Part shown: piece by piece, positions 1,350-4,043 of the stretch
How the letters are laid out: every line of letters begins with the position of its first letter
Numbering within the stretch: the first letter of the stretch is position 1
IMG/VR virus record: IMGVR_UViG_2534682234_000013
Strand: one strand, 5' to 3'
Length of the DNA: 5,019 bases
Origin: a virus
Taxonomy: Duplodnaviria; Heunggongvirae; Uroviricota; Caudoviricetes
The notes under the pieces: model-generated
Database searches by the model: none
What the model was told of the DNA's origin: nothing
What the model saw: only the letters and a program-made list of their open reading frames with translations
Program-made: the position numbers and the translations under genes

Positions 1350-1425
1350 GGCCCTTTAGCTCAGCGGTGAGAGCGAGCGACTCATAATCGCCAGGTCGCT
1401 GGTTCAAATCCAGCAAGGGCCACCA
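1350..1425 (+). tRNA. ileZ: tRNA-Ile (anticodon CAU, lysidine-type; reads AUA), phage-borne ileX-like copy
   Basis: Manual cloverleaf: acceptor GGCCCTT (1350-1356) pairs with AAGGGCC (1415-1421); D-arm GCTC/GAGC; anticodon stem AGCGA/TCGCC with loop CTCATAA (anticodon CAT at 1383-1385); T-arm GCTGG-TTCAAAT-CCAGC; discriminator A plus encoded CCA (1423-1425). Very similar to my recollection of E. coli ileX. The name ileZ follows the usage I recall for Stx-phage tRNA clusters and is not verified. Confidence 0.85.
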
Positions 1426-1426
1426 A

Positions 1427-1492
1427 CCGCCACTAGCTCATCAGGAAAGAACGTCACCCTGTGCGAGATTCGGAGTCCCCGGTGGCGGTCCA
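1427..1492 (+). pseudogene. Truncated/degenerate tRNA-like element (tRNA remnant at the position where a tRNA-Arg 'argN' sits in Stx-phage clusters)
   Basis: 7-bp acceptor-like complementarity CCGCCAC (1427-1433) / GTGGCGG (1482-1488), then T + CCA (1489-1492). 'TAGCTCA' (1434-1440) matches the U8-A9-D-stem start of both flanking tRNAs. The element is only ~63 nt before CCA, and I could not fold a canonical anticodon arm or T-arm; the T-loop-like TTCGGAG lacks complementary stems. Likely non-functional or highly atypical. Confidence 0.35.
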
Positions 1493-1505
1493 TTATCGGT
1501 ATTCT

Positions 1506-1582: not shown

Positions 1583-1869
1583 CACCACACTTATCTGCCC
1601 TGACTCTCTTTTGCGGGCTTTTTATTACAGGAAAGACACCGGACAGTGAAATGTTAAATGCCTCACAATTCAGGCAGTTGACTGTTGCCTGACATGCTGA
1701 GCGTTTGTTAAAAAAATCCTGCATGATGAATCCCCCTGAGCGGCGGGGCATAATGACAGATGTTTGGTTGCGTATTGTATAGGCAAGTTGCGGATTCTGT
1801 CTGGTCATTGCAGAATTCACCGGGAGGCACCCGGCATCATGCTGTATACAGAGATTAGGCATATATCTA

Positions 1870-1894
1870 GGCTTCTCATCGCAGGAGCCTTTTT
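1870..1894 (+). terminator. Intrinsic terminator-like hairpin with T5 tract (+ strand)
   Basis: GGCTTC (1870-1875) pairs with GGAGCC (1884-1889) as a 6-bp stem including one G-U pair, with loop TCATCGCA, followed by TTTTT (1890-1894). Confidence 0.4.
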
Positions 1895-1900
1895 ACATGC

Positions 1901-1926
1901 AAAAAAAAGCCCGAGTGGGTTCGGGC
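1901..1926 (-). terminator. Intrinsic terminator oriented for the minus strand (hairpin GCCCGA/TCGGGC followed on the minus strand by U8)
   Basis: On the + strand: AAAAAAAA (1901-1908) then GCCCGA (1909-1914), loop GTGGGT, TCGGGC (1921-1926). Read on the minus strand this is a GC-rich 6-bp hairpin followed by TTTTTTTT, a canonical rho-independent terminator. Nothing T-rich follows it on the + strand. Confidence 0.45.
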
Positions 1927-1986
1927 AACAGCATGAGATACTTGCATTGTCATTTTTATCGTGTGGATTTTAACCAGGGTTTATAA

Positions 1987-2018: not shown

Positions 2019-2105
2019 CGGGCTGCGGTTCTCCTCTTTTGATTCTCCTTGTGGCCGGACCGTGGCCCGCAACTGTTGAGGAAAATCCCGGAAAGGGGAG
2101 GAATA

Positions 2106-4043
2106 ATGACATTTAAACATTATGATGTTGTCAGGGCGGCGTCGCCGTCAGATCTTGCGGAAAAGCTGACACACAAACTGAAAGAGGGCTGGCAGCCGTT
2201 TGGTAGTCCTGTGGCCATAACCCCTTATACCCTGATGCAGGCGATTGCCGCGGAGGGGGATGTGACCACGCCAGTGGTTGTGCCCGGCACGGGGGATGGT
2301 GGCTATCCGGGAGTGGTCACCACGGAGCCAGATTATTACTACGTTATTCCACTGGCCGGGCAGTCGAACGGCATGGCTTACGGTGAGGGGCTTCCTCTGC
2401 CGCAGACATATGACCGTCCTGACCCGCGTATAAAGCAACTGGCTCGTCGCAGCACAGTGACGCCGGATGGCGCTCCCTGTAAATATAACGACATTATTCC
2501 GGCAGACCACTGTCTGCATGATGTACAGGACATGAGCCGTCTTAACCATCCGAAAGCTGACCTGTCGAAAGGTCAGTACGGAACCGTGGGGCAGGGGCTG
2601 CATATTGCCAAAAAGCTGCTGCCGTTTATACCGGCGAATGCGGGTATTCTTCTGGTTCCGTGCTGCCGTGGTGGTTCAGCTTTCACCACCGGGGCAGATG
2701 GAACATACAGTGACGTGACCGGTGCCTCAGAGAGTTCTACCCGCTGGGGTGTGGGCAGGCCGCTGTATAAGGATCTCATCGGTCGTACAAAAGCCGCGCT
2801 GGCAAAGAACCCGAAAAATGTGCTGCTTGCCGTGGTGTGGATGCAGGGGGAATTTGACTTTGACGGAACGCCAGCAAATCACACAGCCCGTTTTACAGAA
2901 GTAGTGGAACAATATCGTACGGACCTTGCAGATATGGTGGGACAGTGCGCTGGTGGTTCTGCTGACGGTGTTCCCTGGATATGTGGAGACACAACTTATT
3001 TCTGGAAGCAGAAGAGCGAATCCACTTACCAGACGGTGTACGGCAGTTACAAAAACAAAACGGAAAAGAATATTCACTTTGTGCCGTTCATGACCGATGA
3101 GAACGGAGCAAATGTCCCGACGAACAAACCGGAAGAAGACCCGGATATTCCGGCATCAGGATATTACGGTGCGGCCTCCCGGACGTCGGCAAACTGGACG
3201 TCAGCAGACCGTGCGAGCCATTTCAGCTCATGGGCACGCAGGGGGATTATTTCTGACCGTCTTGCCTCAGCGATTCTTCTCCATGCAGGACGGACGGCTG
3301 AACTGGTGGGTGGGGAACAGGTTGTGATGCCGCCGGATGAGAAGCCGTCACCGGACACACCATCAACACCGTCAACGGACGGGAAATCAGTGACAACGCT
3401 GCTTTATTACCGTGCAACAGAGTCAGGTGGTTTACTGAATCCGCAGGGATGGGGAGCTGAAGGAGGGCGTGCATTGGTAGTTGATGATGCAGGTGCTGCA
3501 GGAGGTAAGGCGCTGAGGTGGACCAAACAGACAGGAAGTTCCTCGTGGTTTATGCAGCATGATGCCGGTAATGGCGCAGACCTGCTGGAGAAGGGCGGGC
3601 TTATCAGTTGTCGTTTTAAAGTTGATGGCACACTGACAGCTAATCAGTACGCACTGGCGCTGTACTGGCCGGTTTCTTCACTGCCTCAGGGCGTCACACT
3701 GGAAGGTAATGCCGGTCATAACCTGCTGGCGTCGTTTTACGTACAGAGCGATGCCACAGACCTTAATGTGATGTACCACAAGGGAAATGCTGGTCAGAAC
3801 ACGAAGCTGGGGTCATTCGGCGCATTTGATAACGAATGGCATACGCTGGGCTTCCGTTTTGCCGGTAACAACAGTATTGAGGTGACGCCGGTCATTGATG
3901 GTAAGGACGGGACGCCGTTCATGCTGTCACAGTCACCGGTCGGCACGTTTACGGCAGACAAATTGCGCGTGACCGATATCACTAGCGGTGCGACATATCC
4001 GGTGCTGATTGAAAGTATAACAGTGGAAGTGAATAACCCGTAA
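2106..4043 (+). CDS. nanS-p: Prophage-encoded sialate (9-O-acetyl-Neu5Ac) O-acetylesterase, NanS-p type: N-terminal DUF1737-like region, SGNH/SASA esterase domain, C-terminal domain of unknown function
   Basis: 645-aa CDS. Start ATG 2106 preceded by strong SD GGGGAGG (2095-2101); the six-frame ORF extends upstream to a TTG at 2049 with no RBS. 'PLAGQSNGMAYGEG' contains the GQSN block of SGNH-type sialate O-acetylesterases with the presumptive nucleophile Ser. The N-terminus 'MTFKHYDVVRAASPSDLAEKL...' matches my recollection of the NanS-p paralogs encoded downstream of stx in Stx phages and in stx-negative lambdoid prophages of EHEC. A Pro/Ser/Thr linker 'PPDEKPSPDTPSTPSTDGKS' separates a ~220-aa C-terminal domain. 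Function is inferred from motif and synteny. Confidence 0.8.
   Translation: MTFKHYDVVRAASPSDLAEKLTHKLKEGWQPFGSPVAITPYTLMQAIAAEGDVTTPVVVPGTGDGGYPGVVTTEPDYYYVIPLAGQSNGMAYGEGLPLPQTYDRPDPRIKQLARRSTVTPDGAPCKYNDIIPADHCLHDVQDMSRLNHPKADLSKGQYGTVGQGLHIAKKLLPFIPANAGILLVPCCRGGSAFTTGADGTYSDVTGASESSTRWGVGRPLYKDLIGRTKAALAKNPKNVLLAVVWMQGEFDFDGTPANHTARFTEVVEQYRTDLADMVGQCAGGSADGVPWICGDTTYFWKQKSESTYQTVYGSYKNKTEKNIHFVPFMTDENGANVPTNKPEEDPDIPASGYYGAASRTSANWTSADRASHFSSWARRGIISDRLASAILLHAGRTAELVGGEQVVMPPDEKPSPDTPSTPSTDGKSVTTLLYYRATESGGLLNPQGWGAEGGRALVVDDAGAAGGKALRWTKQTGSSSWFMQHDAGNGADLLEKGGLISCRFKVDGTLTANQYALALYWPVSSLPQGVTLEGNAGHNLLASFYVQSDATDLNVMYHKGNAGQNTKLGSFGAFDNEWHTLGFRFAGNNSIEVTPVIDGKDGTPFMLSQSPVGTFTADKLRVTDITSGATYPVLIESITVEVNNP

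Follow-up and report, generated by a model that had tools for sequence, protein, structure and literature searches.

Among described loci, the closest in position to the element analysed here is argN, the middle one of the three tRNA genes annotated in the Stx2a phages PA21 and Stx2_EH2246 (Ile or Met(CAT), Arg(TCG) and Arg(TCT)), which lies upstream of stx2 in 933W-type phages. The names ileZ, argN and argO follow the 933W literature; no paper using them was found in the literature searched. argN is 77 nt long, is called by ARAGORN, is annotated as tRNA-Arg and follows its upstream neighbour after a 9-nt spacer. A second comparator is the tRNA-Lys(UUU) gene that lambdoid prophages of E. coli carry in clusters of the order Ile2-Lys(UUU)-Thr(UGU)-Gly(UCC) (strain N64; L009 428-504; the major allele in IMG/VR, n = 47), also 77 nt long, called by both ARAGORN and PGAP, scoring 45 bits in Rfam and followed by the Thr and Gly tRNA genes. 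The third is a 76-nt allele of Ile2-X-argO clusters (E. coli 2015C-4944; L005 428-503), which is unannotated by PGAP and has no Rfam tRNA match; its anticodon arm is intact, so that ARAGORN still calls it as Lys.

tRNA-cleaving defences act on tRNAs of two of these types. [quoted passage not shown] On a broader proposal, phage tRNAs serve to counteract anticodon nucleases (PMC10264068).

The window (the whole 5,019-nt stretch of DNA that was analysed, taken from IMG/VR virus record IMGVR_UViG_2534682234_000013) is the late region of a lambdoid prophage, in which an N6/N4 DNA methylase gene (251-1309) is followed by a tRNA cluster, the sRNA STnc100 (1692-1900; 173 bits, Rfam), AgvB on the other strand (1902-1961; 56.6 bits) and a gene for a DUF1737-SASA-DUF6645 esterase (2049-4043); genes for a DUF826 protein and a P21-type holin are also present. 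There are no stx genes in the window, and STnc100 and AgvB take the position that stx2AB has in Stx phages. A prophage in the chromosome of E. coli E2863 matches positions 1-2264 at 99.3% identity, and there PGAP marks a tRNA-Ile and a tRNA-Arg with nothing in between. It is between these two genes that the element of interest, here called the remnant, is found. Numbering the three gene positions of the cluster as slots 1 to 3, the features are as follows:

1350-1425, + strand: intact tRNA with anticodon CAT, ileZ-type, slot 1 (ARAGORN; RF00005, 70.9 bits; E2863 annotation).
1426, + strand: single-base spacer 'A' that separates slot 1 from the remnant (alignments and spacer table).
1427-1492, + strand: the remnant, very probably a slot-2 tRNA pseudogene and, by its sequence, Lys(UUU)-derived (identity 63/65 vs 55/65; no ARAGORN or Rfam call).
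1427-1433, + strand: 5' strand of the acceptor stem, CCGCCAC, intact (sequence; the same in Lys-type alleles).
1449-1452, + strand: 3' strand of the D-stem, GAAC, with A1451 in place of G (pairwise and family alignment).
1453-1463, + strand: surviving bases from anticodon arm and variable loop, G TCA-CCC TGTG (pairwise and family alignment).
1464-1481, + strand: damaged T-arm, CGAGA-TTCGGAGT-CCCCG (alignment of 30 distinct slot-2 alleles).
1482-1492, + strand: 3' strand of the acceptor stem GTGGCGG, discriminator and CCA, intact in the window (sequence; haplotype counts).
1493-1505, + strand: 13-nt spacer TTATCGGTATTCT, of the type found 3' of argN in Arg(TCG)-argO clusters and the same as that after the argN of SaT040.
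1506-1582, + strand: intact tRNA-Arg(TCT), argO-type, slot 3 (ARAGORN; RF00005, 71.4 bits; E2863 annotation).

The tRNA at 1350-1425 is named tRNA-Ile by PGAP (Ile2, read through lysidine) and Met by ARAGORN.

A sequence-only reading of this DNA had described an element about 10 nt too short for a tRNA that keeps a 7-bp acceptor complementarity, the motif TAGCTCA and a 3' TCCA between two intact tRNAs, and the sequence and the ARAGORN calls bear out each of these observations. CCGCCAC at 1427-1433 is the exact reverse complement of GTGGCGG at 1482-1488 (7 bp); TAGCTCA spans 1434-1440, with T1434 and A1435 corresponding to U8 and A9; TCCA consists of the discriminator T1489 and CCA at 1490-1492; and the whole measures 66 nt, against 76-77 nt in the neighbouring tRNAs. 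Of the D-stem GCTC (1436-1439)/GAAC, three of four pairs form and the fourth is a C.A mismatch at A1451, which is shared by an allele that ARAGORN calls (IMG/VR contig L130). The remnant has no functional anticodon arm: 12 nt are gone, including positions 34-36 and the entire 3' stem strand. In the T-arm, A1468 stands in place of G53 and the loop (TTCGGAGT) has 8 nt rather than 7. The same reading had seen neither a foldable anticodon arm nor a T-arm; the former is indeed deleted, whereas the latter is recognisable by homology and is damaged, not absent.

ARAGORN run on the window called only the tRNA(CAT) at 1350-1425 and the tRNA-Arg(TCT) at 1506-1582 and left the remnant uncalled. A search with the Rfam tRNA model RF00005, for which the threshold for tRNA detection is 29 bits, gave no match to 1427-1492 at E ≤ 10, whether the whole window was searched or positions 1415-1505 alone with the laxest filters; this Infernal check had been proposed in the sequence-only reading. 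The sole Rfam match over the remnant, at 12.5 bits to a eukaryotic lncRNA model, was dismissed as chance. PGAP, which is understood to rely on tRNAscan-SE, leaves the remnant unannotated in the E. coli records examined. Single-sequence folding predicted a 3-bp hairpin stacked on the 7-bp acceptor stem, with no extra stability relative to shuffled sequence (-20.5 kcal/mol, z = -0.89); the fold being indistinguishable from shuffled, single-sequence folding yields no structural argument. No open reading frame of at least 50 codons lies over the remnant in the window, and neither promoter-like nor terminator-like sites were detected in 1150-1688. No published description of the remnant was found in the literature searched, and it appears to be an unannotated example of a familiar object, the tRNA pseudogene.

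The window aligns throughout with the PA21/EH2246 cluster. Against the middle gene of these Stx2a phages the alignment has a 12-column gap exactly over the anticodon arm, together with a 1-nt T-loop insertion and many substitutions, which sustains the idea that the remnant is a decayed third tRNA of a Stx-phage-type cluster. The remnant and argN occupy the same slot between the same flanking genes and have homologous acceptor stems, D-arms and T-arms, the same discriminator T, an encoded CCA, and the same type of downstream spacer and argO gene. On these grounds the remnant might be read as a decayed copy of argN, the gene for tRNA-Arg(UCG) in 933W-type Stx2 phages; that TTATCGGTATTCT and argO follow it, as in argN clusters such as SaT040, adds to that case. 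The identities to argN are 55/65 (PA21) and 58/64 (SaT040), and the Lys(TTT) alleles are clearly nearer: 63 of 65 aligned positions are identical to the intact tRNA-Lys(TTT) gene that N64 carries in the same slot, and 61 of 64 to the 76-nt allele of 2015C-4944. Since the intact tRNA gene that related prophages carry there matches the remnant at 63/65 positions, the likeness to a tRNA is not due to chance.

Individual characters point the same way. The remnant and the Lys alleles share the C7-G66 acceptor pair, for which argN of PA21 and SaT040 has T-A; they also have in common a 1-nt upstream spacer, the anticodon stem GTCA.CC, the variable loop TGTG and the T-stem CGAG, and the D-loop of the remnant equals that of the prophage Lys(UUU) gene. 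Neither the UCG arm of argN (CCAGC-CTTCGAA-GCTGG) nor its T7-A66 pair is found in the remnant, and the anticodon-stem bases that survive there are TCA.C, as in the Lys-type TCAAC, not CCAGC. Upstream spacers in the sampled 933W-type argN clusters measure 7-9 nt, and the 1-nt spacer is that of Lys-type clusters. L089, one sampled Arg(TCG) locus, also shows a 1-nt upstream spacer. From these sequence comparisons we conclude that the remnant derives from a tRNA-Lys(UUU)-type allele and not from argN; the anticodon itself being deleted, the assignment to Lys concerns the gene body only. Descent from argN, which the sequence-only reading had implied by proposing an alignment to that gene, is in our view very unlikely: the alignment did locate the gap over the anticodon arm, but the closer relative proved to be the Lys(UUU) allele.

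The damage was catalogued against the Lys allele seen most often in the IMG/VR sample (CCGCCACTAGCTCATCAGGAAAGAGCGTCAACCCTTTAAGTTGAGTGTGCGAGGTTCGAGTCCCCGGTGGCGGTCCA, 47 copies), and alignment to it reveals five lesions: (i) G->A at 1451, which creates the D-stem C.A mismatch; (ii) one A missing between 1456 and 1457; (iii) the loss of 11 nt (TTTAAGTTGAG) between 1459 and 1460, which takes the anticodon, the 3' half of its loop, the full 3' stem strand and the first base of the variable loop; (iv) G->A at 1468, tRNA position 53, which breaks the G53-C61 pair; and (v) an additional G at 1472 or 1473, which brings the T-loop to 8 nt. On our own reading of the alignment, a single 12-nt deletion would not yield the remnant without additional substitutions. 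The pair disrupted by A1468 is G-C in 15 of 15 full-length slot-2 alleles, and A at position 53, an 8-nt T-loop and an absent anticodon arm are confined, among 30 distinct alleles, to the two remnant haplotypes. One further slot-2 allele that is not called, WCHEC, has a different T-loop defect.

The five lesions lie within the approximately 77 nt of slot 2, whereas the flanking tRNAs depart from the corresponding Stx2a-phage genes at just 1 and 2 positions; at the level of sequence, this contrast marks a relaxation of constraint confined to the middle gene. All five fall outside the acceptor stem, discriminator and CCA. The probability that five lesions spare those parts by chance is approximately 0.26 ((59/77)^5), and their internal placement is for this reason weak evidence either way. 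A full-length, callable Lys gene on IMG/VR contig L130 carries lesion (i) only and is consistent with stepwise decay. The search of IMG/VR for other intermediates returned no allele with G53->A alone, none with the T-loop insertion alone and none that combines the deletion with an intact D-stem. For the deletion, slippage across the hairpin-forming anticodon arm, with a 1-nt T microhomology at the junction, would be the simpler explanation. The alternative idea that the deletion mirrors in DNA the 'anticodon arm amputation' of P2-OLD (PMC12445682) was rejected: a CNG motif is lacking in the Lys-type stem TCAAC/GTTGA, that stem is not cleanly excised, and there is no path from a cleaved RNA to DNA.

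Slot 2 is highly variable among E. coli prophages. Across 15 full-length alleles, 95.9% of the cells of the cloverleaf are paired in the true register; shifting the register leaves 54% or fewer paired, and compensatory changes occur at 4 pairs. To judge from this covariation, slot-2 genes are, or were, real tRNA genes. Intact alleles score approximately 45 bits in RF00005, and the flanking tRNAs 62-74 bits. The alleles share an acceptor stem and T-arm and vary in the anticodon arm, which may be of the Lys(UUU), Arg(UCG) or Arg(UCU) type; others carry arms with non-canonical loops of 5, 6 or 11 nt. The discriminator of these alleles, U73, is unusual. Slot 2 is thus best described, from the alleles compared, as a fast-changing position with a shared acceptor stem but different anticodon arms.

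A scan of IMG/VR with a pattern that joins the 3' end of ileZ to the first 11 nt of the remnant recovered classes that differ in gene order. Ile2-Lys-Thr(TGT)-Gly(TCC) clusters account for every one of approximately 60 intact 77-nt Lys(TTT) genes, Ile2-remnant-Arg(TCT) clusters for each of the 31 remnants (29 and 2 copies of two haplotypes), and Ile2-X-Arg(TCT) clusters for most of the 16 copies of the 76-nt allele. The 76-nt allele resembles the remnant in being Lys(UUU)-derived and in sharing the same chimeric cluster and spacers. Its damage is independent: the D-stem has lost T12, and the acceptor stem contains a G.U pair. By this comparison slot 2 has been damaged independently at least twice, once in each allele. 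A query constructed from the intact Lys allele, the argO-type spacer and argO found no lesion-free match in 5,426 complete E. coli genomes; the best match was the 76-nt allele (98.6%). The 95-99% identity band that holds this allele comprised 709 E. coli records, against 391 genomes with the remnant.

Clusters that contain the remnant are chimeric, in that the upstream spacer and gene body are of the Lys type and the downstream spacer TTATCGGTATTCT and argO are of the argN-cluster type; Lys77 alleles are instead followed by GT and then the tRNA-Thr gene. This arrangement points to homologous exchange at or beside the slot-2 gene's 3' end. Exchange between cluster types seems, from the sequences compared, to use the conserved ends of the slot-2 genes, a trait of the family at large and not one peculiar to the remnant.

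An identical 66-nt remnant is present in 391 of the 5,426 complete E. coli genomes (approximately 7%), including O157:H7 strains, such as TW14359, and O111:H8 strains, in a total of 411 copies that are all chromosomal, and its identity is at least 99% in 390 of 392 matching genomes. It is unannotated in every E. coli record listed or examined. In a phage collection it occurs in 15 records, all of them Stx2c-converting phages, and is unannotated in those examined. Low variability is built into the remnant loci that were selected by regular expression, since these were selected by the remnant itself. The 31 copies from IMG/VR are an unbiased sample in this respect, as the search pattern fixed only the first 11 nt of the remnant, and they show just two haplotypes, with 2 of the 31 carrying G1482A, which breaks the C7-G66 pair. 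The remnant sits within at least 15 different flanking haplotypes, and variation in the adjacent spacer and argO comes as recombination blocks, not as point mutations. We read this near-invariance as indicating that the remnant arose once, fairly recently, and then spread by recombination among lambdoid prophages; purifying selection may be an alternative source of it, a reading weakened by these recombination blocks, by the acceptor-stem break in the one variant seen and by the chance probability of about 0.26 for the internal placement of the lesions. As a counterpoint to the view that the remnant is a pseudogene, prolonged free drift would be expected to give more variants than are seen.

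Two further explanations were weighed against decay. The remnant could be a functional, anticodon-less tRNA-like RNA, acting either as a substrate of RNase P or the CCA enzyme that aids maturation of its neighbours or as a stable small RNA or decoy, and the untouched acceptor stem, discriminator and CCA, with every lesion internal, would suit such a molecule; the distribution of the lesions, however, fits chance (p about 0.26), the acceptor stem is broken in two IMG/VR copies, and damage affects two features that tRNA-binding enzymes recognise, G53 and the geometry of the T-loop. A hairpin is predicted to stack on the acceptor stem, but the fold gains no stability over shuffled sequence (z = -0.89). 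The near-invariance across 391 genomes despite mosaic flanks would likewise be expected of a functional RNA and is equally well accounted for by a recent origin, and related clusters, in which slot 2 is filled quite differently, mature their tRNAs as well. Nothing found requires or supports a role as a dedicated processing signal. We consider a functional RNA of this kind extremely unlikely.

Integration commonly takes place in tRNA genes, and the scars that it leaves duplicate part of an intact copy, lack one gene end and lie at element boundaries beside an integrase gene. The remnant might be a tRNA fragment left by, or a target of, site-specific integration or recombination, as the sequence-only reading had also suggested, but it keeps both gene ends around an internal deletion and lies in the late region, with a methylase gene on one side and esterase and holin genes on the other, and ARAGORN found no second copy within the window. 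Satellite elements can leave damaged tRNA fragments (PMC10111431); the damage described there begins in the acceptor stem, which is intact in the remnant (PMC10111431). The flanks of the cluster are highly mosaic among prophages and the remnant clusters are chimeric, as an integration history might produce, but full-length alleles are chimeric too, which makes chimerism common to the slot-2 family at large instead of special to the remnant. An origin in integration, whether as scar or as target, is scarcely credible on this evidence.

The remnant is thus very probably a tRNA pseudogene, the disabled slot-2 gene of a lambdoid late-region three-gene cluster. It lies in the same slot between ileZ-type and argO-type genes, is homologous to intact genes of the family, and bears disabling lesions at positions that are conserved in functional slot-2 members. 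In the history that we propose, a Lys(UUU)-type slot-2 allele became joined to an argO-type downstream gene, and at least five lesions would have gathered in it after that junction formed. With the D-stem, anticodon arm, G53-C61 pair and T-loop damaged, the remnant is unable to decode anything. Having no promoter or terminator of its own, it would be transcribed within an ileZ-remnant-argO precursor and set free as spacer RNA when both flanking tRNAs mature, a process in which RNase P acts on their 5' ends and RNase E, together with 3' exonucleases, on their 3' ends. E. coli quality control removes defective tRNAs and would be expected to degrade the released RNA. The remnant would persist because it lies between two useful genes and its deletion brings no benefit. 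Judged by its sequence, it most likely does nothing.

As a dead gene, the remnant itself would have little biological import. Its unannotated presence in all 15 matching Stx2c phage records implies that the tRNA region beside stx2c supplies two tRNAs, versus three in Stx2a phages. What the slot as a whole may have done is suggested by its intact members: the relatives of the remnant pair Lys(UUU) with an adjacent Thr(UGU), the two anticodons targeted by PARIS and P2-OLD. Unlike the replacement tRNAs that defeat these systems, the remnant, which lacks an anticodon arm, could not substitute for a cleaved tRNA, and the likeness of the prophage Lys genes to those tRNAs is one of anticodons only. 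This pairing suggests by analogy a possible role for the ancestor of the remnant, and a possible reason for its having become dispensable. We offer, tentatively and as a rather improbable reading, that slot 2 could be a fast-turnover counter-defence cassette in which anticodon arms are swapped by recombination, with the remnant as the fossil of a Lys(UUU) counter-defence gene; as a variant, the anticodon-less RNA may itself be stable and active. If the cassette reading were true, slot-2 tRNAs would be nuclease-resistant replacements or decoys against PARIS, PrrC, P2-OLD or colicin D, the remnant would have been disabled once it was needless or costly, and repeated loss would be expected under fluctuating selection. 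The pattern in slot 2 would in that case offer a testable lead on why temperate coliphages carry, and then lose, these tRNAs.

The alleles found at slot 2, the middle position of the lambdoid late-region tRNA cluster, share an acceptor stem (CCGCCA[CT]/[AG]TGGCGG) and a T-arm, and differ in the anticodon arm. This variety was seen at the following comparison loci from related prophages, in each of which the allele lies directly 3' of the ileZ-type gene:

L008, 434-514
L027, L029, L040, L021, L061, L091, L049 and L065

Anticodons for Lys(TTT), Arg(TCG) and Arg(TCT) were observed, besides alleles with non-canonical loops (ACAAC-ATAAT-GTTGT, ATGAT, GTGAT, CACGGT, CATAGT and an 11-nt loop, ACGATAACAGG). 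The identities assigned to these odd-loop alleles by ARAGORN were implausible or undetermined, and the allele with the 11-nt loop, carried by a Stx2e prophage, is labeled "tRNA-OTHER" by PGAP. The slot-2 genes counted as "intact" are themselves atypical as tRNAs. Their Rfam scores reach only ~45 bits, compared with 62-74 bits for the neighboring tRNAs; the T-stem (CGAGG/CCCCG) of every Lys allele contains an A.C mismatch (columns 52/64 of A3, the alignment of slot-2 alleles); and the discriminator (column 74, compared across all slot-2 alleles) is T in most. The discriminator of E. coli tRNA-Lys and tRNA-Arg is A or G.

A second damaged Lys-derived allele of slot 2 is 76 nt in length. It has lost T12 of the D-stem, and its acceptor stem usually contains a G.U pair:

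L005 (E. coli 2015C-4944), 428-503: 76-nt damaged slot-2 allele
16 IMG/VR loci, e.g. L013, L017 and L045: the same allele

ARAGORN called this allele as Lys(ttt), PGAP annotation was absent, and an Rfam search of it returned no tRNA match at E ≤ 10. In E. coli, 709 records fall within the 95-99% identity band to which the allele belongs.

On the 5' side of the remnant, the tRNA with a CAT anticodon (window 1350-1425) was called Met by ARAGORN and is annotated as tRNA-Ile by PGAP in every E. coli record seen, an Ile2 tRNA whose decoding presumably relies on lysidine; phage records for the same sequence are split between Met and Ile. On the 3' side, the discriminator of argO, the slot-3 tRNA-Arg gene (window 1579), is polymorphic among remnant-carrying loci (A in 21, G in 9). 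Variation in the 13-nt spacer (window 1493-1505) and in argO (1521-1570) comes in linked blocks of 5-7 remnant-carrying loci, a pattern that indicates breakpoints of recombination directly 3' of the remnant.

On the strand opposite to the tRNA genes, Rfam also returned matches of 36-40 bits, below the family threshold of 65.7 bits:

1350-1423, minus strand: Plastid-ycf2 5UTR RNA, sub-threshold (same tRNAs matched in L005-L009)

These matches are probably artefactual, caused by an antisense tRNA within that model.

Downstream of the cluster, the position held by stx2AB in Stx phages carries two sRNAs in the window instead, as identified using Rfam:

1692-1900, plus strand: STnc100, 173 bits, full length
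1902-1961, minus strand: anti-GcvB sRNA AgvB, directly after STnc100, 56.6 bits (just above the threshold of 56 bits)

The two are convergent, with a terminator-like hairpin at the end of each, and AgvB also matches AsxR at 46.8 bits, which is below the AsxR family threshold.

The intact relatives of the remnant occur in four-gene clusters:

L009 (E. coli strain N64), 351-660: Ile2(CAT)-Lys(TTT)-Thr(TGT)-Gly(TCC)
L130, 103-413: the same cluster
~55 other IMG/VR loci: the same cluster

Lys(UUU) is the tRNA cleaved by PARIS AriB, and a phage copy rescues infection (PMC11464382); Thr(UGU) is the tRNA preferred by P2-OLD, where a phage copy likewise rescues infection (PMC12445682). The Ile2-Lys-Thr-Gly tRNA set of temperate coliphages may serve in counter-defence.
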